A DNA stretch of 64,000 bases from Macrostomum lignano (taxonomy: Eukaryota): contig NIVC01002768.1 of assembly GCA_002269645.1 (NCBI GenBank), forward strand, positions 1-64,000, read 5' to 3'. Every line of letters starts with the position of its first letter. Position 1 is the stretch's first letter. Position numbers and translations under genes: made by a program. Positions 1 to 23,611 of this stretch are shown piece after piece. The notes under the pieces were generated by a model. The model was given only the letters and a program-made list of their open reading frames with translations. It made no database searches and was not told the DNA's origin.

Positions 1-302
1 AGTATATAAAAAGACGCTTCTAGACCCAGAGCACTTTTTTAATTACCGTTTTTAAGGGTCTAGAGGGGGGACACGGGGTAAATAAAAAAACACATCTAAA
101 CACCATTAATACATCTAATCACCCATAATCACCCCTAACAATAAAAATCACTTCCCAACACTTCCAAACACTCCCCAACACCCCCTCGCGTCCCCCCTCT
201 TAAGACCTTACAAACGGCCATTAAAATAAGGTCTGATCTAGAAGCGTCTTTTCTATACTACTACTCTATAACCCCTTGCCCGCGCCGCAGGCGCGAAGGG
301 TC
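1..302 (+). repeat. Left terminal inverted repeat of Polinton
   Basis: Matches the reverse complement of 17626-17933 with about 6 substitutions and a few homopolymer indels (by eye). Confidence 0.95.
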
Positions 303-442
303 GGAAAGAATAGAAGCTATTTATAGTCAGCTCACCTACCCACCCAACATTCCATTTAGACCAGATTTTAGACCAAACAAAACTAGACTATCGTTTTGGT
401 TTTCGTTTTCAAAAATTTGGTCTAAAATCTGGTCTAAATGGA

Positions 443-879
443 ATGCAGACAATCTTTTTGTTACTAAAAATAGAACAAAAAATGACACACGTTACACATA
501 TGCAAAATCTGAATGAATTGCAGGTAGGAGACCCAGTTGAATACCGAGGTGAGGGGCTTTTTGATGTGGTTGGAACAGCAGCAAATTTTGTTAAAGACAA
601 TATGGGGCTTATAGGGCAAGCTGGCTCTGCAGCAGGCTCTATAACAAATGCTGTAAAAGGAGGAATTGAAGCAGCTAGAGCGGCAGAAGAACTAAAGAAA
701 TTGAGAGATTTTAACGACACCCTCTCACAAATAAATGCAATAAAAGATTTAAAGCTGGCACAAGCCGCACAACCAACAGAAACCCCACGAAAAGCGCACC
801 AATAAGTAATAAAGATATTCAGGATTTTAATAAAATGTTAAATACTATTAAAGGTGGAAAAGGATTAAAGAAATTTTAA
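443..879 (+). CDS. Small putative virion core protein (one apparent frameshift near 795)
   Basis: ORF 443-805 is Gly/Ala-rich and amphipathic. Adding one A in the AAAA run extends it to APISNKDIQDFNKMLNTIKGGKGLKKF* (879). Contains GEG/KGG motifs resembling protease sites. True start may be 482 or 500. Confidence 0.5.
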
Positions 880-889
880 CAATATAAAA

Positions 890-1873
890 ATGGACTCAGT
901 TAATGATGATGAAACCGGTTATATTTTATAGGAGAAATTGTAGATACTTTAGATCTTGATGATAATAAGCAAACCACACACATGTTAAAAAGATTGGATC
1001 GATTAGGTAAAAAGTTTGACTACGACATCGATACATTTAAACTCGCAGCAAAATATGCACAAGAAGGAAGGCCAATATCCTTTAAGAATCGCGGCAGAAA
1101 TTATAGGTTGACAGACTCCGATGTGAAATTTTTAATGGAGACTCACACTAAAAAGGACGGCGGATTACTACCCATTCTACCGCTTCTTTTAGGACTTGGC
1201 GCAGCTGGAGCAGTCGGTTTAGCCGGAAAAAGAATTCATGATAATGTAAAACAGCTAGGAGAGTTAAGAGCGAAACAGGGGGGAATCTTGCCCCTTGCAG
1301 CTTTGCTCCAATAATTTTTGCAGGAATTGGAGCAGCTGGAGGAGTTGCTGGCGGAGCAGCTGGAATTGCAAAAGCAGTAAATGACAAAAAAGCTGCGGAC
1401 GAAAAAGCTAAAAGAGAGGCCGAATTTCAAAGACAGCAAATAACGCAGGACGCACAATTTAAACAAAACTTATCGATACAATTAATAGTAGTTCAGCAAC
1501 AGCTGAGCAAAAAAGAAATGCAGAAGCTAGGTTATCAGCTGGAAAAGGTTTACTAAGGATCAAATCATGGCAATGGTTTACTAAAAGGAACAACCCAAGG
1601 AAGTGGAGTTGTCGCAGATAAACTACATGAATTTGGCAAACTTTAGAAAAAACGGGAGAGAAAGCTAAAGGATTTTTTGACAATATTGGATCCAATTTTA
1701 GACCAGCTGTTCAGAAAATTTTTAATAAATTAGGAAAAGATTTTAATATCATTGAAAAACACGACGGAAGCGGATTATATCTCGAAATGAGACCAAAAGC
1801 AGGTTCAGGAATTTTCTTAAATTCAAACGTTATGGGCAATGGATTGCTATTACCAAAAGCAGATCTCGAATAG
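890..1873 (+). CDS. Adenovirus protein X-like core/membrane-active precursor, broken by several single-base indels
   Basis: Two GG|(L/I)LP hydrophobic segments (DGGLLPILPLLLGLGAAG; QGGILPLAALL[P]IIFAGIGAAGG) resemble adenovirus pX GG|xLP. Downstream frames give repeated GxG motifs (GSGLYL, GSGIFL, GNGLLL). Start ATG at 890 follows TATAAAA. Confidence 0.55.
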
Positions 1874-1957
1874 GCTCCTGGGGGGAGGGTCTGGACACCA
1901 AAAACACAAAATTAAAAAATCAATAATTCAAACATTATATAAATTTTATTCTATAAA

Positions 1958-4900
1958 ATGGAAGCAATTTTAGCTCAAATCGACAACCCTGAACTTAGAG
2001 CACAATTAATAGCTCAAATCGATGCACAACGAATTGCCGATAGGGCTGAAATAGAAGCAAGAATTAGGGCAGAAAATGAGATACGTTTAGAAAGACAATT
2101 AAATGATATTAATAACCCCAACCACAAGGACAAAATGGAGCTGAAGTAATATATATAGATATAGATATAAATACAAATTATAAAGAATATTTTAAACAAA
2201 TGAAAGATAAATTAAAGACTATTAAACAATTATACTATAAGGCCAAATAACAAACGACAGCCAATTAAGTATAAAATAGAAGTTGAAACAGAATTTAAAA
2301 AACCAAATATTCTTAATGCAAATTCAGAAATTGAAGTAATAAATAACTTTTCACAAGAATCATATAAAACATTATTATCAATGGGAAATTACAACAATCA
2401 ATTCGATCAAATAGAAGCTGAGTTTGATGAATGGATAGATAAGATGACAGAAAACGGATCTGGGTTTATATTTGTATTCATGTAATTCAGCAATAGTAAA
2501 GATTGCACCTATAGAAATTCTTAAAGGACGATCACATATGAAGCTCAAATTTAAATCACCTATGATTATAAATCCAGACAATAAAGATAATAAATGTTTA
2601 TTATGGTGTTTATTAATTCATAAATATCACAATCAAGTAGAATCACACATTAATAAAATATATAATTATAGACAATATGAGGATGAAATAATAATGAAAA
2701 ACATATCATACCCAGTAGCAATAGATGATATATATAAGATTGAAAAAATGAATGGTTTAAATATTAATGTGTTTACAATTGAAGAACCAAAAGATCTAGA
2801 AGAAATTTTAACCGATCCAGAATGGTATAAGAAAAGGTGTTATCTTGTTAAGCCAGCAACTGATATAACAGCACCAGATCAAATCGATCTTTTGTACATG
2901 CAGCGCGAAAATGAAACACATTATATATACATAAAAGATATTAGTTCTTTTTTAAGAGAAAATAGAAATAGATATCCACTATGTAGAAATTGTTTTACAT
3001 TTAAAAAGGATGAAACAGCTCTTAAAAACCACCAACGATTTTGTTTAGATCACAAATTTACTAATGCTATAATGCCAGCATCTGAAGATGCAACCCTAAA
3101 GTTCCAACAACATTATATGGCAGTTAAAAAACCAATAGTAATATATGCTGATTTTGAAGCAACAAATGTTCCCTTAAAAGAATCACAGACGGTATCTGAT
3201 GATGGGGAATGCACAAAAAAATTGGCACAACAGTTTCCGAATAGTTATTGTATATATGTACACTCTGTAGCTGATCATATATTTAAATCAAGGATGATTA
3301 CTTACCACGGTAATGATGCAGCTAAGCACATGGCAGAATCATTAGTAAATGTATTTGAATATATTCAAAATCAATATGATAAATTATCAAAAAATATTAA
3401 TATGACAAATAAGGATAGAGACAATTATAAAAATGCAACAAATTGTTTTATGTGCAAAAGATATTTAAGTAAGAAAAATAAGATACGAGAACATTGTCAT
3501 CTAACAGGAAATTATCGAGGGGCAGCATGTAGATCATGTAATGCAAAAGAAGGAAAAGGATGTAAGGAAATACCAGTATTTTTTCATAATGGTTCCGGAT
3601 ATGATTTTCATTTCTTAGTTCGAGAATTGCTTCATTTAGGAAAGGATGAATATGAAATAAATATATTACCTAAAACATCAGAAAATTACATATCAATAAC
3701 ATATGGTAAGAAATACTCCCATCTAGTTTTTCTAGATTCCTTGAGATTCTTATCAACATCTTTAGCAAATGTTGTTTCATCATTAGTTCCAAAACCATGG
3801 GATTTAGAAATAGTAAAGAAAAACTTTCCAATACTATTGAATCGTTTCAAAAAAGAAAAACTATCCGAGGAAGAACTAATGCTATTAACTCGTAAGGGCA
3901 TCTATCCATATGAATATGTAACATCTGAAGACGTATTTTTTCATACCGAATTACCCCCATTGAAAAGTTTTATTCAACATTATCACAAACAAACATAAGT
4001 GAATCGGATTATGAACACGCTCAAAAAGTATGGAAATACTTTAATTGTAAAACATTTAAAGATTATCATAATCTATATCTTAAAGCAGATGTTCTCCTAT
4101 TAGCTGATGCATTTGAAAACTTTAGGAATCATACATATGAGAATTTTAAAATTGATCCCGCATATTGTTTCAGTGCACCGGGATTAACATGGGCTTGTGG
4201 TTTGAAACATACAGATGTTAAGATTGATTTACTAACTGATCATGATATGTTGTTAATGATTGAGAGAGGAATTCGCGGCGGATTCTCGGGTGTACTAGGA
4301 GATAGATATACTAAAGTAAATAATAAATATCTACCAAATTATAATAAAAAAGAAAAATCATCATATGTATTATATCTAGATGCAAACAATTTATACGGTG
4401 GTTGTATGAAACAAAAATTACCAATAGCTGATTTCCAATGGGAAGATGACCCCGATTATTACAAAAATATTCCCGAAGGAAGGGGCTGTATCGTAGAAGT
4501 GGATTTGCAATATACTCGGGAAGCAAAAGCAAAAACATATAAATATCCTTTAGCTCCAGAGCATTGTTCAGTTAATGAAGATGATTTATCACAAACACAA
4601 AAAGATTATCTTAAAGCAGATAATGCAAAACATCTAGCAACAAAAAAATTAATATTAAATTTACATGATAAGAAAAACTATGTAGTGCATTATAAGCTTC
4701 TACAATTTTATGAAAAGCAGGGATTAAAAGTGTCTAAAGTACATCGAACAATATCGTTTATTGAGGAAGATTGGTTAGCTAAATATATTGACTTTAATTC
4801 AAATCAGAGACAGATGTCAAAAACAAATTTTGAGAAAGATTATTGGAAATTAATGAATAATGCTTTTTATGGAAAAACGGTTGAAAATATTAGAGATAGA

Positions 4901-5920
4901 ACCCAATTCCATTTAGAAAAGGATATTGATAAAGCAAAGAAATATTTCTCAAAACCTAACTTTAAAGACTTTATAAAATTTGATGATAACTTTATGGGTA
5001 TTCATATGAGAAATAAAACAACAAAATTTCTTAAACCAATATTTATTGGAATGGTTGTTTTAGATTATGCAAAGCTGGTAATGTATGAATATTATTATGA
5101 TGTTATAAATAAAACATGGCCAGATAACTATCCAATATATGCAGACACCGACAGTTTGGTATTTAAGGTTGAAACAGAGGATCGGGCAAAGCCCGCGAAC
5201 CAAAGGTTCGATGTCTATAAAGATATGGAAAAAATTAAGGATACACTGGATACCTCCGACTATCCGGATAACCATCCTTTAAAATCAGATCAAAATAAAA
5301 AAGTTGTACTTAAAATGAAAGATGAATTAAATAGCAAAATCATAACCGAGTTTATAGCAATAAGATCAAAATGCTATGCATTTAAGGTTTTAGGACAGGA
5401 GGGAGAGGTAAAAAAAATAAAAGGTGTATCAAGAGCAGCAGTAAAAAAGATAACATTTGATGATTATAAAAACGTACTTTTAGATTACCTTAATACAATT
5501 GAAAATTATCATGCTCCACAATATCGATTAAATTCAGATAAGCATCAGATGTTTGTCATCGAGACAGATAAAAAAACATTAAGTCCATTTGATGATAAAA
5601 GATATTTAGATGATAAAATTAAAACATATCCATATGGTTTAAAAGAAGAGATAAAAAATATGATAAAAGATAAAAAACAAAAAGAAGATATAATAAGTAA
5701 ATATAATGAATACAAAGCGGCAATAAATAATTATTATTACGATTGTGATTGTGAATCCGAATGTGATTGTGAATATAATACATTTCTAGAATATGAAAAA
5801 GATATAGATAATTATTATTCAACATTTCCAAAAGAACTTAAAAAATTAAATAAGGAAAAAGTCTTGAATAACTGGAAGAGATTAACAGAAAAATTACTTA
5901 TCGGGTCTGTAAAAAACTAA
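1958..5920 (+). CDS. polB: Protein-primed family B DNA polymerase (pPolB), interrupted by frameshifts at about 2134, 2228, 2472 and 3957
   Basis: Motifs: ENGSGF (N-terminal region), CxxC...EHCHLTGNYRGAACxxCN, exonuclease FHNGSGYDFHF and FLDSLRFL, RKGIYPYEY, A YLDANNLYG, B KLMNNAFYGK, C YADTDS. Region 3960-4200 reads through in a shifted frame (IEKFYSTLSQTNISESDYEHAQKVW...). The 1958 start is inferred by frameshift repair. Confidence 0.93.
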
Positions 5921-6253
5921 AGCATGTAATTGTTTGAGCAAATCATTAACTTCAATTTCATATATTATTGAGCACCAATTATCCTCACAGTCGGCAGGGT
6001 AACTTAAACAATCCTTTATTTTTTTCCTAAGTTTTTTTATTTTTCTAACCAATCTATCTATTTCAATTTCAATTACTATTTCAGCATAAACAATATCTTG
6101 TCTTAAAAAACGTTTTCTTTTATCTATCTCATATCGGATGGGAAACATATCGTCCCCATACTCATGATATTTCTGAGATATAATTATATTTATTTTTTTA
6201 TTAATATCATTAAGTTCACGCTCTTTAGTGATAAGGATTTTTATCGTATCCAT
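5894..6253 (-). CDS. Hypothetical Polinton accessory protein (119 aa)
   Basis: Open ORF, tightly packed between viral genes; no recognised motif. Confidence 0.5.
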   Translation of the reverse strand: MDTIKILITKERELNDINKKINIIISQKYHEYGDDMFPIRYEIDKRKRFLRQDIVYAEIVIEIEIDRLVRKIKKLRKKIKDCLSYPADCEDNWCSIIYEIEVNDLLKQLHALVFYRPDK

Positions 6254-6281
6254 TTTCTTATAAAAAATTTAGTCTTCGTCG

Positions 6282-6635
6282 TCATCCTCCCAAACAAGCC
6301 AATTTTACAGTCCTATCACTCTTTTTATTATTTGTTTGTTTTAGTTTAAATTGCAATCCACCCTCGTTGCAGTATTTCATAACAAACGCTTTAGGTTTAT
6401 TAATAACTAAAACAGGAAAATTTTTAACATCATCTCCGCTTAGACATAAAATTTTTTGCCCATCTAATTGTAAAAATATTGATTGAAGCCCAATAAATTT
6501 AACCTGTCTCAAACATATAATATTATATTCTTTATTCTCCAACATATTGGGTGTGAGATAATTAATCACATTAGAATCGGTTTTGAACCAGCTCTCCATT
6601 TTTAATCTAAAAAAATAAAAAAAAATGAAAGACAT
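6282..6635 (-). CDS. Hypothetical Polinton accessory protein (~105-117 aa)
   Basis: Open ORF; probable start at MESWF after TAAAAATG. Confidence 0.5.
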   Translation of the reverse strand: MSFIFFYFFRLKMESWFKTDSNVINYLTPNMLENKEYNIICLRQVKFIGLQSIFLQLDGQKILCLSGDDVKNFPVLVINKPKAFVMKYCNEGGLQFKLKQTNNKKSDRTVKLACLGG

Positions 6636-7137
6636 TTACGAATGTAATAAATGTAATGTGACTATGCACAGAGGGCAAACAGCAAACGGAGATATATATC
6701 ATATGTGTTATTCATGTTCTAAAATATATCAATTTGAAAAAACAAAAAAGATTGAAAACTCATATTACTATTTTAAAAACACAATTTTAAGAAATCTTAC
6801 AAGAGACATTTCTGATCCAATTTTAATTCCCGGAAATAATGTTTATTTATATAATAACTTTTTCCATTTAAATAAAGGAAAGGGATTAAGTTCGAAAGAC
6901 TCTGAAAGGATTTTAATTTTAGTTGGATATTATTTCAATTTTCTTATTCGAGAGAATACAAAGTTTATAAGGATAGGTAACATACCTAACGAAATGTTAT
7001 TGAAAAAGTCATTGGAATTTTTATGTATTGATAAAAAATTTAAACCTAGGATCAGAAGAGAGTTACCACTTTGGGAAGAAAATATAACATATGCATTAAA
7101 TAAATTAAACAACATTAAGTTCTACAGCACTTCCTGA
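6625..7137 (+). CDS. Hypothetical protein with N-terminal C4 zinc ribbon
   Basis: CNKC...CYSC; ATG follows an A run. Confidence 0.55.
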   Translation: MKDIYECNKCNVTMHRGQTANGDIYHMCYSCSKIYQFEKTKKIENSYYYFKNTILRNLTRDISDPILIPGNNVYLYNNFFHLNKGKGLSSKDSERILILVGYYFNFLIRENTKFIRIGNIPNEMLLKKSLEFLCIDKKFKPRIRRELPLWEENITYALNKLNNIKFYSTS

Positions 7138-7760
7138 CCGCGGACTTTGTGCCCCAGTAGCAATAGTTTCAGGTTCGTAAATGCCTAATGTTTCTATAGG
7201 TGGAGCTTTGGGTTTATCGAGTCTCAACTCTTTTAATTCCATATCGGTAAAAGTTTCAACATCTAAAATTCTATTTCTATCTTTTAAATATTTTTCATAT
7301 AATTCAACCGCGGTTGATAATTCATGAATCGTTATCTCTCCGTCATCCAATATTTTTTGCACATATAAATATAATTGATTTTTATATTGCTTGGCAACAT
7401 CTCTTAAAGATTTATATTTTTCCTTTCTTTTTTTAAGATATAATTTAATTGCTAAAAGTATTGATAAGTTCTGATCAATTCAAAACCTGATATTGAGCCA
7501 ATTGAAATACCTAAAAATAATTGAGATAAATTAAGAGTTGGAATAGATTGTAAAATACCTAAAACGATTACACATAACATTGATAAGCTTCCAAATCCAA
7601 TATTGAAAAAATCCATATTTCTTATATGGTTTGAAACTCTTCTTACTTTTTTAGTATATAAATCATAATCATAATTTATTCGATCAACATTACTTAACAT
7701 CTGACCTTTACGTTGGTTGAACCGGTCGCGTTCCCATTTATCTGCTTCAGATACCGACAT
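7105..7760 (-). CDS. Putative membrane protein (two hydrophobic helices plus ILDDGEITIHEL motif), frameshift near 7470
   Basis: ORFs 7452-7760 and 7105-7362 join through the frame LSILLAIKLYLKKRKEKYKSLRD...VQKILDDGEIT. Confidence 0.55.
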
Positions 7761-8071
7761 TCTCGTCTATTTTTAATAGCACCAAAATGAATTCCCCACG
7801 CTCTTTGGGATTTGCCCGAGCTTAATAGGTATTGTATTGGAGTTATTCTTTCTTTTTTCTCCCATTTAAATCCTATTTTCCAAAACTCTTGAAGTATAAT
7901 ATGATTTTTTAATAACTTAATTAATTCTTGAAGCTTCTTATTATCCTGAACATTTACAGTACTAAATAAAAATTTGGTATGAGATTTGAATGTTTTTATA
8001 TTTGATTCTTGTTTAGGAATAGGAATAATAACATTATTTTGCCGCATCGATGGAGTTCTACTAAAAGCCAT
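7694..8071 (-). CDS. Hypothetical Polinton protein (125 aa)
   Basis: Open ORF with CTATATAAAATG start context. Confidence 0.5.
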   Translation of the reverse strand: MAFSRTPSMRQNNVIIPIPKQESNIKTFKSHTKFLFSTVNVQDNKKLQELIKLLKNHIILQEFWKIGFKWEKKERITPIQYLLSSGKSQRAWGIHFGAIKNRRECRYLKQINGNATGSTNVKVRC

Positions 8072-8141
8072 TTTATATAGAAATATTTAATATTATAACG
8101 CGTATTTCGATACGATTTTGGTTCGCGACTTAGCTTTAGCC

Positions 8142-10186
8142 TTAGGCGATTTCGGTTTGTGGCCGTTCCAAATATGCGGTCGCAGCAAAATCATATCCTG
8201 CTGATGTGCTACCACAAACGGCTGCACCACGAATAAAATGTGCGGCATCTGCTCCTCCAGTTCGAGCACCAAAACCCATAAGAGTTCCCGTTTTATCTAA
8301 ATCTCCCCAAGTTCCACTATCATATGTAAAAAAGTTTTGCCCAATTAGCGTATATGTATTAGCTGATACATTGTATGTGCTTATTTGATACCAAACTCTT
8401 TGATTTAAAATATTAATTTCAAAAAGATGCCAATCGCCGTTATCAATATTAGCATAGGTTATAGTTTGATCTGCGTCATTAAGAACATCATTACGAGCTG
8501 TTGCACCGTCTGATTTTATATTGCTCCAAACAACCCCAACTCTATCATGCCATTCACTCGCAAACACAATCAAGCCGGCGCGGGTTGTTAACCCGGATCC
8601 AAATTCACTTGTTGGACGTTCGTGACAATATGCATAAAACCAAACCGCATCAGCACCATTCCTGTAGCATTAGCAACTCGGAAATAGAAGGAGGCGGAGA
8701 TATTACGAAAATGGGTGAAATTAAATTGCAACGCTCCAGACTGACCACTTGCTTCATCAGTAATTCTAGCTCCATTTTGATAATCAATATAAGTAGCGCT
8801 ACCAACAAAACTTCCAGTTGGAAAAATATCACCGGCTGTGGTTGGGTTTTGATATCCAGTCCAATTGCAAATTACAGGCTCGTACAAAGCGGCATCGATT
8901 GCAGGTATTCCATCCAATTTTATTTTATCGTTAAAAGACATTCGGCCATCCGCCGTTTGTGTTACTCGCGTATCAACATAACCTTTAGTAACAACAGAAC
9001 TGTTATTGTTTATAGTAGAGATATTAGTAATTGTATTACCTCCCATATCAATTGATTGATTAACCACTCCCAAATTTAAATCAAGAATTGTAAACGTCTG
9101 TCTATAAATCTGGAAGGTTGACAGACCCGGGTTGGTTGAACCCGAGGTTGATGTAAGACAGAACAATCTGAAATATGAATATGTTTTATCAAAATTTTGT
9201 GTGACATTAATTGTTTGAGTTGAGTTATTTATTGCTACAGAACTATCCGCAGGTATTAATACGTCCCAACTTGTATTGTCATTACTTCCCTCAAATCGCC
9301 ATGATGCTGGGTGCTCGGTTGAAGGTGATGGCCTACCACGTAAATCAATTTTATAACACATTATTGCGGAAGGGCATTGGACTTGAATCCAATAATCGGT
9401 TTGAGTATTATTTGTTGCCCAATCTGTTGAATCATTTCCATCAAACGCTTTCCAACTTGCAAAATCAGTTGTATTAAATGCAGTGCTTGCGGTTATTGCA
9501 AAACCATTTCCACTCCAATCTGCCATGGTAGGTATGTGACCAGTTTCAACCGTTTGGAATCGATCTTGTTTTGGGGCTCCACCCCCAACTAAATTATCAA
9601 CCTCCGTTTTGGTATAGGAATCAGTTATATCTCTTTTTAAATTTAAGGAATTATCAACTTCAGTTTTGCTATAAGAATCAGTTATATCTCTTTTTAAATT
9701 TAGGGAATTATCAACTTCGGTTTTGGTATAGGAATCAGTTATATCTCTTTTTAAATTTAGGGAATTATCAACTTCAGTTTTGGTATAGGAATCAGCAACA
9801 TTCCGTTTTAAATTTAGGGAATTATCAACTTCGGTTTTGGTATAAGAATCGGCCGTATTGCGTTTTAAATTTAATGAATCATCTATTTGAGTTCGAGAAT
9901 AAGAATCAGTTATATCTCTTTTTAAATTTAACCCATTGTCAACCTCTGTTTTTGTATATGAATCGGCTACGTTCCGTTTTAAATTTAGGGAATTATCTAT
10001 TTGAGTTTTGGTATAGGAATCTGCAACATTTCTTTTTAAATTTAGTTTAGTATCAACTTCACTTTTTTTATAACCTTCATCTTCATTAATATATCGGTTA
10101 TCTCCGAATGTAACACTTATTCCACCAGAAGTACCACCACCAGTACTTGATGTTCCGTTCCATGAGGGTGTTCCAGAAAATAACAT
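8142..10186 (-). CDS. Fibre/receptor-binding protein: 19-aa repeat shaft, F5/8C discoidin-like domain and L-type lectin-like domain; frameshift near 8658
   Basis: Eight and a half YTKTEVDNSLNLKR(D/N)xxDS repeats. Discoidin-like AFDGNDSTDWAT...WIQV...WRFEGSND. One added A joins the C-terminal ORF via GNGADAVWFYAY...WHLFEINI (concanavalin-like). Confidence 0.7.
9592..10072 (-). repeat. 57-bp coding tandem repeat (fibre shaft)
   Basis: About 8.5 copies of the 19-aa unit. Confidence 0.9.
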
Positions 10187-10196
10187 TTTTTACTGT

Positions 10197-10636
10197 CTAT
10201 TTTATAGAGTCTAAAATCATCTTAAATACTTCGGGGTTTACACGAGCTTCATTCGAAAGTCGATATAAAAAATACAACGCCGCTTGCCCGCAATAACTTT
10301 TATCAAAGGTTTGAAATTGTTCGTGATGATCTCCACATAAACGATTTTTAGTATGATTAAATTTATCTTTTATTTCCTGTAACGGAGGAAGCGCGTATGA
10401 ATCAAAAAAATAAACAAGTTTTGGTTTTGAATAAACTGCTGACCAATGAACACCATTTTCTTTTGTTGTTTCAATATTAACAATGAAACATCCATATTGT
10501 GGTAAGTCTTTGATCTCATCTCGCATAACACATCTGAATGGTTTTATTTTTAACTGCCTCGCCCAATTTGTTAATTCGATATTGCTTGTTGTGTCCGTTC
10601 CATATCTTGTTTAAAATCATCCCACGTCATGGTCAT
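10197..10636 (-). CDS. Adenain-like cysteine maturation protease, frameshift near 10600
   Basis: Catalytic H (GVHW), D (FFDSYA), Q and C (QTFDKSYCG). N-terminal TSNIELTNWARQL lies in the same frame upstream of the listed ORF. Confidence 0.88.
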
Positions 10637-10637
10637 T

Positions 10638-10844
10638 TTATGTTCCTGAAAAACTCTTGGTTTTAGTTAGTTTCGTAGGTGTGGGTTTTAACAATTCCTT
10701 TCTTATTTTATCAGCTTGTAACTGCCTTAATTTTGCTAGTTCTAGTTCGTAATTATCTTCAGCTTTTTTAACTTTTTCTGATTGTTTTTTTATTAAATTA
10801 TTATTATCGTGCTTTGCACGCGAACATGTTGTTCGATTACCCAT
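10638..10844 (-). CDS. Small basic coiled-coil protein
   Basis: Start MGNRTT after AAAAATG; Lys-rich; contains one hairpin module in frame. Confidence 0.45.
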   Translation of the reverse strand: MGNRTTCSRAKHDNNNLIKKQSEKVKKAEDNYELELAKLRQLQADKIRKELLKPTPTKLTKTKSFSGT

Positions 10845-10888
10845 TTTTACTATAGGAAACGGACAAAGTCCGTGAACCAAAGGTTCGA

Positions 10889-11673
10889 TCAAACCTGTTT
10901 TATACGTAAAATTATTGTTATTGATTGCCCACCAAAACTTATTAATCTATCGCTTTCATCTACAATCCTAATATAAATTGATTGAACGCTATATTGATTT
11001 AAAGGATAATATATTGGGGTTTGGGGTGCAACAATCATTTTCTCTCCAATTGGAACAGCAAGAAATGGGATTGAATAAATAATTCCACGTTGAACCAAAA
11101 CTCCGTTATCGTCTGTTATATAACCACCGTTTGAAATGTCGGTTGTTATATTAATTGTATTTACTCCACCCTCTATATTTCCAACTGTATCACCGGTGCT
11201 TGATGTGGTAACTATTCGGGAATTAAATCCAAGTATGGTTCTGAGTGAATTTGCAATTGTGAAATCAACCTGATATCCGGATCCTAGTGATAGTGTGAAT
11301 CTGCCAGACGGTAAATCAACACCTATAACAATTGCTCCTGCTACCCAATCACCATTAGTTGTTAATTCTCCTTCTATATAAGCATTCAAATCAGTATAGC
11401 TATACGCTCCTGGGTAACGCTAAATGTTGTCCAATTGGCTCCGGAATCTTTAGAATATCTAAATTGATTATTTGTTGCATTAATTAATTGAGGCATGTTG
11501 AAAACCGAAAATAGTATTAAACCTATTTGATAACTTAGGCTTTGATCAAGTTGTAATGGATCGCGCAATTGAATCCGTTGCTCGCTGGTTGTCATTATAA
11601 ACTGTAATGTTGTACTAAATTTTGAATTAGTTCGATCTACCAATTGTTTTATAGTATTTAAATTTGTAGTCAT
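10889..11673 (-). CDS. Minor capsid protein (penton, single jelly-roll), frameshift near 11413
   Basis: One added C gives VTPGAYSYTDLNAYIEG. Typical Polinton mCP features: LRTILGF, INITTDISNGGY, PIYYPL, IRIVDESDRLISFGGQSITIIL. Confidence 0.85.
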
Positions 11674-11790
11674 TTTTATAGTGGGAAATTAATCGGACGA
11701 AGTCCGATCGTTCCGAAGGTACGCGTGCTATGCACGATCGAACGAAGTTCGCGACCCTATGGGGGGGCGATCGTACCGAAGGTACGCGTG

Positions 11791-12591
11791 CTATGCACGA
11801 TCCTCTTCTTCCTCATTATCTTCTTTTATCAAATTTGTTAAAATTCTATGTTTCCTTTCTAACCTCGGATTGATATAAATATGTTTGTATTGGCTATCAT
11901 CCCAAATTTTTTTACACATACTTTTAAATGGTTTTGCATCCAACCCAGGATTAAATCTAGCGTGTATATTTTGTAAATCATAATTATCTAAATCAAACAT
12001 TACACAACAACTTGCATTCTTTTTTATAATCGATTCTAATTCTCTAAAGGATTGAGTAAGATAAAAAGCTCCAATTCCATCTCCTCTACCACTAACAAAA
12101 ATTTCCTTTTGCAATTCTTGATCACCGTCATTAATACAATCATCAAAAATAATTAGTGTTTTATCATGTTTTGGAATTTGATCATAGGCTAATCGGGTTG
12201 ATACTCTAACAGTTGGGGCTCGATCGGACGAAGTCCGCGACCCTTCGGGGCGATCGGTGATGTTTTCTGGCTGTTGTGCCATTGTTTTACATAAATCCTC
12301 AATGTCTGCTAGATTAAATCGCGGTTCGTCATCATCCTCATATTGCTCATATGCTCTTAACATTCTAAACAAGACATCTTTTTTTAATTTGTTTTTTAAT
12401 CCATGTTTAAGAAATTCATAATATTTTATTCTAGGTTTATTAGTATAAATTATTAAATTATTATAGTCTAACATTCCATCTGTTGTTAATAAATCGTAAA
12501 CAAAGTGTGTTTTTCCTTTACCTGATCCTCCGATTACTAAACAAAGAAAAGGATCATTTGGAAATATTTTATTGTGTTTTGCCTTTACCAT
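11791..12591 (-). CDS. A32/FtsK-family DNA packaging ATPase
   Basis: Walker A GGSGKGKT, Walker B LIIFDD, and SGRGDGIGAFYLTQS. Confidence 0.92.
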   Translation of the reverse strand: MVKAKHNKIFPNDPFLCLVIGGSGKGKTHFVYDLLTTDGMLDYNNLIIYTNKPRIKYYEFLKHGLKNKLKKDVLFRMLRAYEQYEDDDEPRFNLADIEDLCKTMAQQPENITDRPEGSRTSSDRAPTVRVSTRLAYDQIPKHDKTLIIFDDCINDGDQELQKEIFVSGRGDGIGAFYLTQSFRELESIIKKNASCCVMFDLDNYDLQNIHARFNPGLDAKPFKSMCKKIWDDSQYKHIYINPRLERKHRILTNLIKEDNEEEEDRA

Positions 12592-12675
12592 TTTTAAAGA
12601 AATAATTTAAATAGGCGCGACGGTCGGAGACCTGCGACACTAAAGTGGTGCGACGTGCTTTGCACTGCACTCATT

Positions 12676-14148
12676 TTACAATGGTGCGTCCCGAACAATC
12701 GTGCCATCAGCTTTAGCAATTGACATATATTCCTCTAGAAACAATACGTGGGCGTCAAGTGCCTGATTACCGGTTTTATTAATCTCTAACATATAATTAA
12801 GTCCAATATTGGCTACGTTTTCTTTCTGTGCCGTTAGATCATAAACAACCACTGGATGAATGTTTAGAAACTCTGTGGGTGTGTACTGAGGGACGGCATA
12901 CGCTTCATTTTTAGCATAATCTTGATAATATTTTATAAAATCATTAACATTATTATTTGCTATATTTAAATTTAGGGGGTCTTTAACCGGATAATATTGA
13001 TCATCAACCTGCAGGCGGATATTCTGAACATTAAACTCGTTAATAGCTGCAGCCGCATTGTCTGTTGCGGTGGCTGCTTGTTCTGCTATGGCACCGGATT
13101 GAAGCCAATATAAATCCCCATTTGCTCTTTTACTCCTTCTATTTGTTATCTTAAACCAAACAAAAATATATCTCACCCGACGTTTTGATGTCAGTATTTG
13201 CCACTGGAATGAATCCTGGTTATTATTAATGGTTCGCATAAAATGTCGACGATTCAAATAAAATATTTCCTGATCATGCGTTAACTGATTATCGATGTGT
13301 TTTAAAAGTGGGGCTGTTACCTCAATAGTTGGTACGACTAATTGAATTGAATCTATACGAACTGCTATATCGGTTGAAATTGAGGTTCCATAAAGTATCC
13401 TAGGCTGATATCCACCAGATATTTGCAACTGTATCCCAAATTTTAATCCTTTCCATACCCGATTTGGTGAGAAGAACCCAAATAGCGGGAAGATTGAAAA
13501 GTCCTGCTCATATGCTGTTGCTGTGGTTAAAACCGCGACTGGGAATTTATTCTGACGATCTATAAAACCAGTATTAATATCTTTTGTATTAGTCATAGTG
13601 GTTACAACTGGAACTATGTTTGTATTAAGGTAAACAATTAGCGCTGCAGTATCTGCACCGGCTGCGTTTTGTACATTAGGGAAAACTACTGCTTGACCGT
13701 TACCTTTATCCGGCATCCACCCAACATTATCACCAACTTGTTTTGATAAATAAGTATAATTTAAATGTTTCAAAACTCCATTAATCTCTGCGGGGTTTGA
13801 TGATGTCTCAACCTCAGCACCATTAACAGTTAGTTGAGCTTGGGAAAAACATTTATAAAACCAATCATTTTCTATTATTATTCCGGATCGATCTGCGATA
13901 TCTCCGGCTGCAAGAGCAGTTCCATCATTTCTAGTATATAACCATCTAACACGGAAAAATGCATTTTTCATATCCAATATAGTGTTGGTTGCGCCGATGT
14001 CAAAAGTTACCGTTCCAGTAGTAAAGTTATTTGAATTATCACTTGTTGGTAGGGTATAATTTAAATCTCTTGCTCTGACCTCATTAATATACTGTCGGTG
14101 CTTTTTGAAATGAAATTTATCACTCCACATAGTTTTTGTTTCAGCCAT
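12676..14148 (-). CDS. Major capsid protein (double jelly-roll, hexon-like)
   Basis: Intact 490-aa beta-rich ORF next to the ATPase and mCP; Polinton MCP-like segments (QAQLTVNGAEVE, LQVDDQYYP, PVVVYDLTAQKE). Confidence 0.85.
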   Translation of the reverse strand: MAETKTMWSDKFHFKKHRQYINEVRARDLNYTLPTSDNSNNFTTGTVTFDIGATNTILDMKNAFFRVRWLYTRNDGTALAAGDIADRSGIIIENDWFYKCFSQAQLTVNGAEVETSSNPAEINGVLKHLNYTYLSKQVGDNVGWMPDKGNGQAVVFPNVQNAAGADTAALIVYLNTNIVPVVTTMTNTKDINTGFIDRQNKFPVAVLTTATAYEQDFSIFPLFGFFSPNRVWKGLKFGIQLQISGGYQPRILYGTSISTDIAVRIDSIQLVVPTIEVTAPLLKHIDNQLTHDQEIFYLNRRHFMRTINNNQDSFQWQILTSKRRVRYIFVWFKITNRRSKRANGDLYWLQSGAIAEQAATATDNAAAAINEFNVQNIRLQVDDQYYPVKDPLNLNIANNNVNDFIKYYQDYAKNEAYAVPQYTPTEFLNIHPVVVYDLTAQKENVANIGLNYMLEINKTGNQALDAHVLFLEEYMSIAKADGTIVRDAPL

Positions 14149-14182
14149 TTTTTTAAGTTAAAAAAGTTTTTTATGTTAAAAA

Positions 14183-14854
14183 ATGAGTCAATTTATGGAC
14201 GTTGATGGAGAGTTAGCGATTTATAAAGAGAAGCAAAGATATTCTGATTTTGTTAGAAATTTACAAAAAAGAAAGTTAGGAATACAATTAGCTGGTGAAA
14301 GATTTGCTGCTCCTTTTGTTAATCCTATTACTGGGAAAATTAGTGAACTAGAAAAAACAGATAAAGATCTTCTGGAAAAAATTGCTAAAAATACGGAGCC
14401 AAAAGAGGATGAAATTTTGGATGAGCCGCCAGCTTATGATGTTGATCAAGCTCAATTGAGAGTTGCAGAGATTAGGGCTGCAGAAAGGGGTGGAGTTGAT
14501 GAATATCCGAGAGCTGCACCAACTAGTATTGCTGTGACAGATTTAGGTAATAATAATTATCGAATTGGTGGAGTTGATAAAAATCGAAATGAACTATATA
14601 GAGAATTGGGCGGAGCATATAATATTGTTATGAACCCTAGGGTAAAATTTAACCCTGAATTATATACTAGGGATGAATTAGTAAGTGCAAAAATTTTTTA
14701 TGATGAGTTGGGAGTAAGAGCTGCTAAAAATACCAGCTTGTATAAAAGGATTGTTAATTCTATAAATAACAAACCAGCTGTTGGAGAAGGATTTAAAACA
14801 CCGCGAAAACTTGTTTTAGCTGCTGCGAAAGCTGCTGGACATACTGGAGTTTAA
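14183..14854 (+). CDS. Hypothetical conserved-type Polinton protein (223 aa)
   Basis: Intact ORF divergent from the MCP gene; ends near a GEGF motif. Confidence 0.6.
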   Translation: MSQFMDVDGELAIYKEKQRYSDFVRNLQKRKLGIQLAGERFAAPFVNPITGKISELEKTDKDLLEKIAKNTEPKEDEILDEPPAYDVDQAQLRVAEIRAAERGGVDEYPRAAPTSIAVTDLGNNNYRIGGVDKNRNELYRELGGAYNIVMNPRVKFNPELYTRDELVSAKIFYDELGVRAAKNTSLYKRIVNSINNKPAVGEGFKTPRKLVLAAAKAAGHTGV

Positions 14855-14881
14855 TTAATTGTTAAATTTATTTTTTATAAA

Positions 14882-15484
14882 ATGGAACCTAAAAAGATTT
14901 GTATTAAGTGTAAACAAGAAAAACCAATGACGAAAGAATTTTATTTTTGGAGAAATGATTCAAAAAAATTTAGAAATGATTGTCGATCTTGTCATAATAC
15001 CTCATCTACTATTTGGATGAAAAACAATAAAGATAAATTTAATGAATATAGAAAAAACAAGTATCACAATGATGATAATTACAAACATATTGTTTTAATT
15101 AGAAATAGAATAAATTGGGCGTTGAAAAATTTTAATGACAAGGACTATATCTCATATCTTGATTGCACAAAAGAATTCTTTTTTGATTGGTTAAATTTCA
15201 CAAGAAAATATTATGTTTCAAAAGATTATACTGGAAATTTAGATATTGATCATTTCATTCCCGCTTCTTCGTTTAGTTACAAAGATGAAGATCAGATGAA
15301 AAAGTCTGAACATTGGACAAATAAAAGATACTTAACTAGCGTAGATAATAACTATAAAAAAGTTAAACAACCAACCATTGAAGAGTTTGCAAAACAATTG
15401 GTGCTATCATGTATTTTTAAGGCTATTAAAAATGAGCAATCATGCGACGCATGCGAACCGAAGGTTCGACCAATTAGTATTTGA
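14882..15484 (+). CDS. Free-standing HNH (His-Me finger) homing-type endonuclease with N-terminal CxxC...CxxC zinc ribbon
   Basis: CIKC...CRSC, then DIDHFIPASSF...HWTNKRYLTSVDNNYKK (DH...N...N core). Intact, with its own TATAAAATG start. Confidence 0.8.
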   Translation: MEPKKICIKCKQEKPMTKEFYFWRNDSKKFRNDCRSCHNTSSTIWMKNNKDKFNEYRKNKYHNDDNYKHIVLIRNRINWALKNFNDKDYISYLDCTKEFFFDWLNFTRKYYVSKDYTGNLDIDHFIPASSFSYKDEDQMKKSEHWTNKRYLTSVDNNYKKVKQPTIEEFAKQLVLSCIFKAIKNEQSCDACEPKVRPISI

Positions 15485-17042
15485 AGGAGGATTTTTAGAC
15501 TTACAAAAAGGATTAACAAGCTTACCACCAATATTTACTACTGGGAGGTATACGGGTGAGCTACACCTGCCATCAATGAACTTCACAGGTTATCCCGTGG
15601 CCTGAGTGGTAGAAGCAAAGCTACTGCTAGTCACTATTAGTGGCGATGTCTCCAAATTGCGTGAAACCCGTCATACAGCTTCAAGTACCACTTCAATTGA
15701 GAAATCTTTTGAAGGAACAGAGGTAACTCCTCTTCCCAAAGGTAACAAGCTTGAAGACATGGTGGCAATGCGCAGCCAAGCTCCTAAGTATTTTAAATAT
15801 AAGGAGAAGGTTCAGAGAGCAGACGGAGATGGGCGGTAATTATCGCCGCTTAAGGTGTGCTCCAGCCTCTTTCGAAAGATTGAGGGTAAACTACCCGGCA
15901 CTCGCTTAGATTTGAGATTAAATCCTGACAATACTCCAAAATCTGATTCAATTCCAATAAATGGGATTGATTGGTTAGCATACTATCACGACTTAGCATA
16001 TAGAGATGCTGACAAGAACCCGCCCGAGGAAGCATTAAGATTAAAACATGAAGCCGATCAAAAAATGATTCAAGGATTAGATAACTTGCAGGGATTATCG
16101 GTAGGTCAAAAATTAACTAGGTGGATGGTTAAAAAGATCTTGCAGTCTAAAGTTAAATTTGGTTTGGGAATTAATTATAATCAACATGGAAATAATTGTG
16201 TTGAGTGTTTGTTGTTAAGTGGCGGCGGGTTAAGTTCTGATGAGGCAAAGATTCTTCATAAAGAATATCGAAAACCTAAATTTTATAGAAAAATCATGAA
16301 CTTCAAAAAGAATGAAATTTGGTATGCTGATTTAATGTCGATGCCGAACGAAAGAGGATATAAATATATCTTAACCATATTAGATGGTTTTACTCGATAC
16401 GCGTGGGCTGTTCCTTTAAAATCCAAAAAGGGAGAGGAGGTTGCTGCTGCTTTTAGAAGTCTTGGAGAAAAAAGTGAAAGGTTGTGTGTTGACGAAGGAA
16501 AAGAATTTTACAATCCTCACATGTATAAATTGTATCATTTTGAAAAAGGAAAAGAAAGGAAAAAAGACGCGAATGGGGAGTATATTAATAAAATTTATTC
16601 TATTTATGGAGAGAGTAAAAACGCATTAATAGAAAGATTTAATCGAACTTTAGGTAAGAAATTATGGTTTCAGTTTAGTCTTAATGGTAACCAAAAGTGG
16701 GTAAAAATATTACCAGACGTAGTGAAAGATTATAACAATTCATATCATTCGGCGATAAAGATGACTCCTCAACAAGCTTATAACAATCCTGAAAATGTTA
16801 GGGTTACTTTTGGAGATTTTGAAAAAAAGAAAACTAAAGGTTTTAAGGTTGGTGATTCTGTTTATATCTATAAATGGAAAGATAAGTTTGAAAAGGGAAG
16901 AAAAGGATATTGGAAAATAAGTGAGAAATTTACCATCAGTAAAGTTTTAAATACAAATCCTACAACCTATATAATTGCTGATAAGGATGGTGAAGAAATA
17001 TTGGGTTCTTTTTATGAGAACCAGATAATGTCTGCGAACTAA
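15432..17042 (+). CDS. Parvovirus-type PLA2 / retroviral-like DDE integrase fusion; join(15432..15590,15894..17042)
   Basis: Splicing restores GELHLPSMNFTG|PGTRL and links it to the PLA2 YYHDLAY...EAD. Integrase WYADL, LCVDEGKEF and IERFNRTL supply D,D,E; C-terminal FKVGDSV is SH3-like. Confidence 0.9.
15591..15893 (+). ncRNA. Group I self-splicing intron (303 nt, IC1-like with P5abc, ORF-less)
   Basis: P1 CAGGU/GCCUG with U.G at the 5' splice site. P3 UGUCUCC/GGAGAUG, P4 UUGCGU/GCGCAG, P5a CUUCAAG/CUUGAAG, P6a CUCCU/AGGAG, P7 GAGAGCA/UGCUCC, P8 GGCGGU/AUCGCC, P9 with a GAAA loop. Removal restores the conserved PLA2 motif in frame. Confidence 0.92.
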
Positions 17043-17052
17043 GTTCAAACAG

Positions 17053-17277
17053 TTACTTAAGACAACATGGTAGTAAATTTTTTATTACAAACAAAAACAA
17101 TATTATTACTATAATTGTTACTAATATTATTATTGACATTTGTTCAACTGTTATCAAACTTAAATTTTCATTAAGTTCATTAATTGGAACATTTCCGATG
17201 TAGGAATAGTTTACCTTCATTTTTTTATATATATTTTTCACAATAAATGTCGTTTCTGTTATAGAATAATAGTTCAT
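17053..17277 (-). CDS. Small single-pass membrane protein
   Basis: C-terminal hydrophobic stretch IIILVTIIVIILFLFVI. Confidence 0.45.
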   Translation of the reverse strand: MNYYSITETTFIVKNIYKKMKVNYSYIGNVPINELNENLSLITVEQMSIIILVTIIVIILFLFVIKNLLPCCLK

Positions 17278-17293
17278 TTTTTAAATATTTTTT

Positions 17294-17608
17294 TCACATA
17301 AATATTTCACTTTCATTCTCTGAATCACTGGTTTCATATGAACTATTTGTTGATTCGGAATCTGTTGATTTAACCTCCCAATCATCCGAATTTAAATAAT
17401 CTCCAAGTTGAAATATTAACTCACCCTCTTGTTCTAAATCATACATCTCATCTAGCTCTAATGGATAAAGTTTTAGGTCGTGCTTGTCGTCATATTTTAA
17501 ATAAACTTCATCAATTATTCCATTCAAAATATGTTGTTTTATTATCTCTGCATTTTTAGCAACAGTCTCAAAAGTATCACTAACAGAAAAGGTGTAAACT
17601 CGGGTCAT
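17294..17608 (-). CDS. Small acidic protein
   Basis: Open ORF adjacent to the right TIR; Asp/Glu/Ser-rich tail. Confidence 0.5.
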   Translation of the reverse strand: MTRVYTFSVSDTFETVAKNAEIIKQHILNGIIDEVYLKYDDKHDLKLYPLELDEMYDLEQEGELIFQLGDYLNSDDWEVKSTDSESTNSSYETSDSENESEIFM

Positions 17609-17625
17609 TTTTAGTAACAGAAAAA

Positions 17626-17933
17626 GACCCTTCGCGCCTGCGGCGCGGGCAAGGGGTTATAGAGTAGTAGTATATAAAAAGACGCTTCTAGATCAGACCT
17701 TATTTTAATGACCGTTTTTATGGTCTTAAGAGGGGGGACGCGAGGGGGGTGTTGGGGAGTGTTTGGAAGTGTTGGGAAGTGATTTTTATTGTTAGGGGTG
17801 ATTATGGGTGATTAGATGTGTTAAGGGTGTTTAGATGTGTTTTTTTATTTACCCCCCGTGTCCCCCCTCTAGACCCTTAAAACGGTAATTAAAAAAGTGC
17901 TCTGGGTCTAGAAGCGTCTTTTTATATACTACT
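17626..17933 (-). repeat. Right terminal inverted repeat of Polinton
   Basis: Reverse complement of 1-302 plus the terminal AGT; ends ...TATATACTACT. Confidence 0.95.
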
Positions 17934-18472
17934 AACGTACCTGTGCTCGAACGGTCGCAAAGCATGTCGATGTGGCTCATCTCGGCTGCATCCATCGCAT
18001 CGGCCATGATCACCAAGCCGGGCTCGCTGTCACACTTGGCCTTGCTCGGCTTCCAGAACTTAATTCCGGGGTACAGCTTGTACTTTGTCCCACAAAAGTC
18101 GTCGCCATAGCCAGAGGGACACAGAGCGCCAGCTCGAAGTCGTTGGTCCTCACGGTGGACGAACACGCGACCTCGCTTGCTGCAGTCGCAGTCGCGCACT
18201 TGCTTGCTGCACCGATCGAACACGAACAGCCGACAGACACGGGAGCTCGTAGCCGTCTCCATGGTGAACGCCTTGCACAGGGGCTCCGATCTGCACTGAA
18301 TGGAGCAGTCGAGCTCGGTGCGAGCTCGCGGCATGACTTTGACGAACTCGTCTCGGATGCACAGGAATCCTTCGATTGCGTTGAACTCGTCCTTCATGTG
18401 GCAGGCGCTCCCTGGAACCGGCCGAGTAGCCAGCATGAGGCCGAGGAGTGTCCGGAGCAGAGCCGGCCACAT
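17934..18472 (-). pseudogene. Secreted PAN/apple plus C-type-lectin-like protein, 5' part, interrupted by the Polinton
   Basis: Signal peptide MWPALLRTLLGLMLA. PAN-like CSIQCRSEPLCKAF...CRL; CTL-like start CPSGY...CGTKYKLY...W..SKAKC. The frame runs straight into the TIR at 17933. Confidence 0.65.
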
Positions 18473-22900: not shown

Positions 22901-23065
22901 GTAGGAGTGATAGCGGTTCCAGTCGGCCTTCTTCCAGGCCCAGGAAAACCTGGGTTCTTTGGCCAGGGCCGGGCGGATACCATGAATCGTGATAAGAATC
23001 GGCTTATGGTCAGAACCCAGCTCCGGCAGGACAGTCCAAGAGCACCGCCCAGCTAGGGATCTGCT
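19962..23065 (-). mobile_element. I-group LINE (APE C-terminus, RT, RNase H, CCHC), 5'-truncated, copy B
   Basis: LGSDHKPILI, YRPVSLTS, GVPQGAVCSP, FADD; RNase H YFTDGS, TDSQSA, WIPGH..GNERAD; CLRC...H..C. One frameshift near 21515; (CAA)n tail. Confidence 0.93.
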
Positions 23066-23201
23066 ATTGTTGTTGTTGCTGTTGTTGTTGCTGTTGTTGA
23101 TTTTGCTGTTGTTGTTGTTGTTGCTGTTGTTGTTGTTGTCGTTGTTGCTGTTGTTGTTTTTGCTGTTGTTGTTTTTTCTGTTGTTTTTTTATTATTTTTT
23201 A

Positions 23202-23583
23202 TTAGAGGCAGGGGGGTTGTGTGCACCCTGGCGCACTTTCAGCGACATCATCAAACAACCGGCGAGAGGCATTACTGCCCATTCTGACGACTCCCCTGAG
23301 CAGGCACACAAGCTACGTACGCAGATATAAGATACGTACTGTACGCAGTCATACGCACAGGCACACACTCACACAGGAGTGTACAGCGGCCCTAACTTTA
23401 TTTATCGTTAGGCATGTACACTTCACTGCGCCTTGGGGGGTTGGCTCCCAAGGCCGTTAATTGCACGAGCAGAGCCAAGCCGAGATTCCAATTCAGCCCC
23501 AAATTAATGTGACTGCGCTTGGAATCGAGCCTGGGTCGCTGGCACACCAGAGCCTGCGCTAGACCGCTGGGCTACGGCCCCCC
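23202..23583 (-). mobile_element. tRNA-derived SINE, full length, inside the (CAA)n array
   Basis: Head GGGGGCCGTAGCCCAGCGG (A box) and GGCTCGATTCC (B box); body shared with copies at 28073 and 54186. Confidence 0.85.
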
Positions 23584-23611
23584 TTTTCGTTGTTGCTGTT
23601 GTTGTTGTTTG

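Follow-up and report, generated by a model that had tools for sequence, protein, structure and literature searches.

In the available text of one review, nuclear group I introns are confined to the rRNA genes of microbial eukaryotes (PMC3679873). Two further sources, as far as their accessible text goes, describe them in endogenous viruses, namely in protist Polinton-like viruses of Rhodomonas, Paulinella and Desmodesmus (PMC12220804) and in a punuivirus endogenous element, an endogenous giant virus of Chlamydomonas, whose capsid gene has an IC1 intron (10.64898/2026.10.09.758095). Excerpts from work on viral conflict describe introns with homing endonucleases in the interference competition of Bodo saltans virus (PMC5871332), and the intron nuclease of phage PhiPA3 gp210 as a weapon against a co-infecting relative (PMC11620839). 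A proposal from 2009, as cited in the available part of PMC11296320, regards a free-standing nuclease beside an ORF-less intron as the forerunner of intron-encoded genes. Parvovirus-type PLA2 is known from animal Polintons as the PLA2X genes of adintoviruses, and in the accessible text of that paper the word 'intron' occurs once, in another context, with no comparable case (PMC8502044). Across the main texts of a mostly open-access literature, no report was found of an animal Polinton with a group I intron or of site avoidance by a Polinton.

The locus studied here differs from the protist Polinton-like virus and punuivirus introns, as far as the same excerpts describe them, in its animal host, its PLA2-integrase gene, an accompanying nuclease, empty alleles and a purge of the word GGNCC. 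The initial annotation had considered a ribozyme intron that interrupts a protein-coding gene of an animal Polinton to be undescribed or very rare; none is reported from animal Polintons, but novelty is limited to animals because the nuclear endogenous viruses of protists and algae already have introns in protein genes (PMC12220804; 10.64898/2026.10.09.758095). In common with what is described of Bodo saltans virus and PhiPA3 are an intron that would mask the target, a nuclease that would harm a co-infecting relative and ORF-less introns that would use enzymes supplied in trans. The enzymes of those two systems are, in the same texts, HNH or GIY-YIG proteins acting at one locus, whereas the one found here is restriction-like, with an apparent four-base site and a purge extending over the whole element. 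The layout of the 2009 proposal, as cited, recurs here, with the difference that both states occur in one genome, within one nuclease family (58-73% identical) and in an animal virus (PMC11296320). In contrast to adintovirus PLA2X as described in the available text, PLA2 is here fused to an integrase and split by the intron (PMC8502044).

The window, i.e. the whole 64,000-nt stretch of DNA that was analysed, begins with a Polinton/adintovirus-type element (1..17934, no strand assigned) bounded by TIRs at 1-302 and 17626-17934, and a target-site duplication check places its left end at the contig start. Profile searches of its ORFs matched a Pox_A32 ATPase and an rve integrase, pPolB was assigned from sister copies that match PF03175, and the protease and capsid genes, which gave no clean Pfam match, are presumed from size, position and motifs. 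The element thus has TIRs, pPolB, rve integrase, ATPase and presumed protease and capsid genes, in keeping with its first description as a Polinton. In the window copy pPolB (2448-5920) is broken into two ORFs and has an Endonuclease_7 domain inserted, comparable with the HNH insertion described in nematode pPolB2. A fibre-like gene at 8588-10189 combines 57-nt tandem repeats with an F5/8 type C domain and likely contains a frameshift near 8600. Palindromic repeats of ~30 nt are dispersed in the element (5183, 10808, 10860, 12225, 15441 and 11705-11802), one of them slightly upstream of the intron, and the host flank at 19974-26126 contains RT-RNase H retroelements, present in two copies, along with long simple repeats.

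The PLA2-integrase gene lies on the plus strand in two exons. Exon 1 (15432..15590; 159 nt, 53 whole codons) runs from ATG to ...NFTG and ends in a Gly codon whose U makes the splice-site wobble. Exon 2 (15894..17042; 382 codons from PGT) encodes the remainder of a parvovirus-type PLA2-like domain, which PF08398 matches below its cut-off (E 0.0015), as well as an rve integrase, matched by PF00665 slightly under cut-off (E 1.6e-7). Between them is a 303-nt IC1-like group I intron on the plus strand with no internal ORF and a final A (15591..15893). RF00028 aligns with 15581-15884 over the full model at 59.8 bits (E 7.1e-14), above the gathering cut-off of 50 bits, a match that went undetected when the whole window was scanned with the fast filters of Rfam; by plain folding the insert has a z-score of -1.75, and 5/100 shuffles fold equally well. 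By frame arithmetic, removal of the insert restores the host reading frame and rejoins FTG with PGT. A translated insert was rejected because read-through from exon 1 meets a stop at codon 58, the fifth codon of the insert. Spliceosomal splicing was likewise rejected, as AG-ending copies would go out of frame and the window copy has no AG, and so was a 3' splice site at 15884, which falls within P9.

All hand-defined helices (P1, P2, P2.1, P3, P4, P5abc, P6-P8, P9, P9.0 and P10) pair with zero non-standard pairs, including every helix named in the initial annotation. P1 with the internal guide sequence occupies 15586..15604 and contains the U15590.G15600 wobble; it is followed by P2 and P2.1 (15607..15644), the P4-P5abc-P6 domain (15657..15810) with GAAA as loop L5b, and P7 (15815-15821 with 15858-15863, region 15815..15863), which encloses P8 and the 3' strand of P3. 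P7 has the variant form GAGAGCA/UGCUCC and retains the G-C guanosine-binding pair. P9.0, P9 with its GAAA loop and the terminal A (15864..15893) were placed by Rfam alignment, helix check and copy variants, the register of the L9 GAAA being chosen by the alignment and favoured by the variants. Identification as a group I intron is thus based on a covariance score above gathering, the U.G pair of P1, the P3-P9 core and the G-C pair of P7. P2.1, the P5abc extension and IC1-type P4/P6/P7 sequences are present and make the intron IC1-like.

The intron is not confined to the window. In a DNA search for copies, in which the best 40 of 189 candidates were scored, all 20 fetched loci contained the insert (297-303 nt). 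A genome search with RF00028 scored 28 places, each of which exceeds the cut-off and lies within the PLA2-integrase gene of another family (family B), whose 836-895-nt intron occupies the identical codon (25/28 loci with a mapped junction). Motif-anchored comparison of family B with the family of the window copy (family A) revealed three double-sided pair changes in P7 and G-C in place of the U.G of P4, consistent with the covariation first proposed from the window alone. Among 20 further stretches chosen as empty or divergent, seven (L049-L055) are empty at exactly the codon boundary of the intron. Three belong to family A, with an exon 2 that is 90-94% identical in nucleotides, and four to family B, of which three were compared (94-97%). 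Alleles with and without the intron therefore occur in the same genome, and the empty ones share the predicted boundaries to the codon. A separate 'family C' was rejected, its members being family-B copies with an empty site (94-97% identical). One empty locus (L055, G000:C1874) has two exon-1-like segments ~740 nt apart, 5' of the empty site. Filled alleles are also suggested in other samples, because database proteins P0184, P0211, P0214, P0215 and P0202 start in the apparent 3' end of the intron.

The core at this codon is not always the same. In an RF00028 test on eight sister loci two matched, one above the cut-off, and there was no match for a second intron type or for the metagenomic locus L199 described below, so the status of introns missed by Rfam is taken from hand-checked helices (P6 of L059 left out). 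The second type (L056, L059:1291-1620 and L060) has the same 5' site and a compensated P1, and has P2, P2.1 and P5abc in common with the window intron around a different core; because of this combination and the missing Rfam match it may be a chimera. The 3' site predicted from its P9.0 would put exon 2 in the wrong reading frame; a further two G positions keep the frame, and duplex energies favour none of the candidates. About 25 further genome matches resemble this type, and with L199 included three different cores occupy the PLA2 codon. Decayed copies contain further insertions in or beside the intron and nuclease (L056:1650-2460; G000:C986 and C954), and a ~110-nt hairpin with Polinton-like terminal motifs, possibly a miniature element, lies upstream of family B at L022:2940-3040.

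A terminal G is near-universal in group I introns, with a known exception, and the window intron was filed as an A-ending variant because it lacks this G. The window copy ends in A; of the 30 family-A copies examined, 22 likewise have A as their final base and 8 have G, while family B has G in 27/28 (the remaining one unmapped). The window intron, its terminal A notwithstanding, would be spliced out of the RNA, with guanosine attack at U15590 and ligation to 15894 guided by P9.0 and P10. A precedent in animals is the hexacoral mitochondrial ND5-717 intron, which, in the available text, ends in A and has its exons ligated in vivo; that intron is mitochondrial, obligatory and giant, whereas the one in the window is nuclear, optional and 303 nt long (PMC6545197).

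Alternatively, the system may be real and the A-ending copies may no longer splice, spreading through helpers in trans or an integrase started internally. In-frame ATGs do occur downstream within exon 2, and L063 has such an ORF. No spliced form was seen, which together with the near-universal G would fit this reading; the joined 15590-15894 sequence, proposed at the outset as a target for RNA reads, is absent from four sequencing runs, but the blank carries no information, as X20, a large run among the four, also lacks the expected empty DNA alleles. One contig from a presumed-RNA run spans the 3' junction unspliced. Loss of splicing is nevertheless unlikely in view of the coral precedent (PMC6545197) and of the A ending itself, which recurs across copies with diverged exons and an intact P9.0. 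In 11 A-ending copies, pairs of which are not independent, the intron p-distance is 0.063 against synonymous exon distances of 0.35 and 0.43, which would mean constraint or recent homing and argues for a ribozyme that is functional or has moved recently. In the same copies dN/dS is 0.19 for exon 1 and 0.057 for the PLA2 part of exon 2, although the exon signal could predate the intron.

While the window intron has no nuclease ORF in a peripheral loop, family-B introns house an ORF of at least 158 codons in the P2.1 loop, with nuclease matches in 28/28 loci (e.g. intronic form L022:1820-2293). A free-standing form, 58-73% identical, lies directly upstream of exon 1 in 7/13 intron-bearing family-A stretches (e.g. 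L063:637-1119). The window copy has in this slot a Zn-finger/HNH (EndoVII-like) endonuclease gene (14882..15484, plus strand; PHROG 1035 endonuclease VII, E 3e-6), immediately 5' of the PLA2 gene. The family-B ORF matches Pfam RE_Eco47II at 25.9 bits, which just reaches the cut-off (E 8.7e-6), and all five further homologs tested hit this family too; a PDB sequence search with the nuclease profile gave no match, and leads from an Atlas search were limited to restriction enzymes and HNH. Its structure model (pLDDT 86.7) has EcoO109I as best Foldseek match (E 1.3e-4), and VIA-align gives Z 9.7 with this enzyme (rmsd 3.6, 154 aligned) against 6.5 for the runner-up. Intronic and free-standing forms both retain the catalytic residues E49, D65 and E76-x-K78 of a PD-(D/E)xK nuclease, a class to which the homing enzyme I-Ssp6803I also belongs. 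Between the two forms synonymous sites are saturated and pN is 0.22, and the nuclease is under purifying selection. In the host genome there are 103 nuclease matches among 116 candidates, all scored, dozens of them with open frames. The free-standing nuclease accompanies a filled site (299-333-nt insert) in 31/34 copies, the other three not being called, and none of 10 empty-site contigs has a nuclease match. Intron-encoded nucleases exist elsewhere too, because database homologs 50-56% identical read on into P4-P5abc sequence.

The partner of this mobile group I intron therefore looks like a restriction enzyme, judged by its family and modelled fold. EcoO109I recognises RGGNCCY (10.1101/2023.10.17.562781), and an Eco47II homolog has been linked, with the authors' reservation, to GGNCC (PMC10305163). 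A nuclease of this kind most likely cuts GGNCC, as far as sequence and model can tell, while the fold match leaves specificity unproven. The Polinton enzyme has family, fold and catalytic motif in common with Eco47II and EcoO109I. It differs from type II restriction-modification in that its gene lies in the ribozyme intron of a eukaryotic element and in its apparent lack of a methyltransferase, no family of which was found among the window ORFs scanned, while one may exist in the family-B and nuclease-bearing elements, which were covered in part.

The same word stands out in the elements themselves. The Gly-Pro of the PLA2 calcium loop spells GGNCC under any codon choice, and the intron splits it; in the whole 17.9-kb Polinton the word occurs 0 times, against 12.5 expected from a Markov model or 21.5+-4.8 in shuffles (0/200 as low). 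It is the sole zero among 1024 four-base words, the next lowest ratio being 0.55, and related G..C words are mildly depleted (0.55-0.6). Two 9-kb family-B stretches also contain none (6.3 and 3.6 expected). The element-aligned parts of 67 loci hold three sites outside the junction: the 32 filled family-A loci have none, the 28 family-B loci have two, both in copies with a stop in the nuclease, and the 7 empty loci have one; as the copies are kin, neither these counts nor those of co-occurrence are independent. In two empty loci (L049 and L050) the junction is the sole GGNCC within ~2.9 kb. By contrast, the controls are close to expectation: the host flank has a ratio of 0.89, five further pPolB stretches in the genome of this host contain 39 sites against 44.6, eight loci with an intact GPGT contain 77 against 86.9, and 35 IMG/VR loci contain 271 against 257.8, with 34/35 keeping the word. 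The sole zero among the latter (L217, 2.6 expected) has no PLA2 motif detected. Specificity for GGWCC only or RGGNCCY only was rejected, since W and S forms are both absent. Gly-Pro is scarce throughout the PLA2-integrase family (30 against 79 expected), and a GPG pattern occurs in 31/49 homologs with the PLA2 histidine motif. In P0187, P0188, P0190 and P0192, Gly-Ala replaces Gly-Pro in the loop and there is no Gly-Pro elsewhere, possibly an intron-free escape from the same nuclease. P0201 and the nuclease P0005 have longest contigs of equal length (14527).

These observations probably reflect a three-part system of this clade, consisting of a short-site nuclease without methylase, an element purged of the site, and an intron masking the one site that cannot be recoded. 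The nuclease, encoded in the intron in family B or upstream of the gene in many family-A copies, would cut GGNCC. Instead of methylating its own DNA the element would survive through loss of GGNCC throughout, much as the methylase-less PacI is protected by the absence of its sites, and, differently from Eco47II and EcoO109I, its unavoidable site would be covered by the intron, which interrupts the Gly-Pro GGNCC in DNA and would leave the RNA by splicing. During co-replication the nuclease would cut rival DNA. An empty allele would be repaired from an intron-bearing copy, i.e. homing, because it holds one GGNCC site, while elements of other kinds, rich in sites, would be fragmented, i.e. interference; the window copy, which has no Eco47II-like nuclease, would be an immune bearer of the intron. 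Counting against this view are purged elements that lack the nuclease (the window copy and the partial contig L199), two distant nuclease-bearing loci with no depletion, the mild depletion of related words and the general scarcity of Gly-Pro in the protein family. An enzyme that cuts at four bases is expected, inside an animal nucleus, to harm its host, and the present data give no reason for tolerance; perhaps, as a guess, host DNA is spared through nuclease expression confined to a late replicative phase. We lean, with less assurance, towards the wider view that animal Polintons practise methylase-free restriction of rival or helper DNA through a four-base-specific nuclease, with immunity by site erasure, have recruited at least three group I cores, or else a Gly-Ala loop, for the remaining site, splice with a terminal A and record a transition from restriction to homing.

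Homing endonucleases usually recognise long sites of 14-40 bp that span the insertion point. An ordinary mobile intron with a conventional enzyme and a long junction site, the lack of GGNCC having another or a past cause, would account for intronic and free-standing nucleases at one intron site, which fit classical and collaborative homing, and for the HNH and GIY-YIG genes found in the same slot as the free-standing nuclease. It would also fit two distant nuclease-bearing loci that are not depleted in GGNCC (2 against 2.4 expected and 3 against 3.1). A long-site enzyme, however, exerts no pressure on GGNCC elsewhere, yet GGNCC alone is absent, in W and S forms and from three divergent elements, and both family and fold of the nuclease indicate GGNCC enzymes. 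This explanation is thus distinctly unlikely, and the purge argues instead for a short nuclease site.

The purge could also come from outside, for example through a GGNCC restriction enzyme encoded by a giant virus acting as helper or rival, with the intron as immunity and the element's own nuclease as a minor captured copy. Intron and purge recur together in L199, a replicate in favour of the three-part system and a partial contig of an IMG/VR Polinton unrelated to the window element, whose PLA2-integrase protein is 35% identical. At the same Gly-Pro codon it has a 302-nt intron with the third core, ending in G (L199:2804-3581), preceded by a GIY-YIG gene, and it contains 0 GGNCC against 5.3 expected. 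An Eco47II-like nuclease is absent from both the window and the L199 contig, and still both are purged. Giant-virus relatives exist for the intron cores and for the HNH gene: at least 120 IMG/VR stretches match the core motif, many labelled as giant-virus MAGs, and among 120 of these seven have relatives of the window HNH gene beside group I cores and two have the P7 variant GAGAGCA/UGCUCC. Nine inspected stretches have neighbouring genes that we take to be capsid-like. Six loci (L077, L089, L091, L125, L130 and L135) contain two to four group I cores along with genes presumed to encode giant-virus-like capsids; these cores are of two kinds, and HNH ORFs run into them. The best viral intron identity is ~70-83%, local and over parts, and a viral contig set searched with nuclease, pPolB, PLA2 part and P5abc motif gave no match. 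The acquisition from a large DNA virus suggested at first is therefore plausible, with no donor identified because no viral intron is close. As a source of the purge, an external enzyme has little probability, given the 103 nuclease matches in the host genome, dozens open and under purifying selection, and five unpurged pPolB stretches elsewhere in the same host.

The host of the Polinton is a bilaterian animal. Its 764-Mb genome has at least 150 homeodomain matches, among them what we take, from their motifs, to be Hox3-like and Antp-like ones, and a divergent let-7 hairpin scoring under the cut-off. Chitin_bind_4 matched nothing, in controls either, and so carries no information on the host. 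As the initial annotation had assumed an animal host, it is relevant that intron-bearing copies and animal-type homeoboxes lie together on 0.4-1.2-Mb contigs (C56, C110 and C757), one of these homeoboxes being Antp-like and C757 carrying a Hox-type homeodomain. Many homeobox genes are present in three near-identical copies genome-wide, and element copy counts are inflated by haplotypes or duplication for this reason. An origin of the element in a protist or alga assembled together with the animal is hardly credible and largely refuted by these contigs, although the window's own contig has no demonstrated animal gene and Polinton-like-virus group I introns are, in the accessible text, reported only from protists (PMC12220804).

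The nuclease, the GGNCC purge and the three cores at one codon, none of which the initial annotation had noted, are more surprising than the intron alone. A multicopy intron family in a protein gene of a bilaterian genome extends nuclear group I introns to animals, and ribozyme splicing of a nuclear animal transcript becomes testable. If the wider view is true, group I splicing would here act for the first time on a nuclear protein-coding gene of an animal, with A as the last intron base, and a restriction enzyme would be caught in the course of turning into a homing endonuclease. Because a single genome contains both nuclease forms, alleles with and without the intron, and several cores at the same codon, it allows direct study of how homing introns arise, and the purge predicts the site of the enzyme ahead of experiment. 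The nuclease would also offer a reason for upkeep of the intron, namely immunity, beyond parasitism, and the purge would imply viral replication and competition of these elements in a setting where cutting DNA pays.
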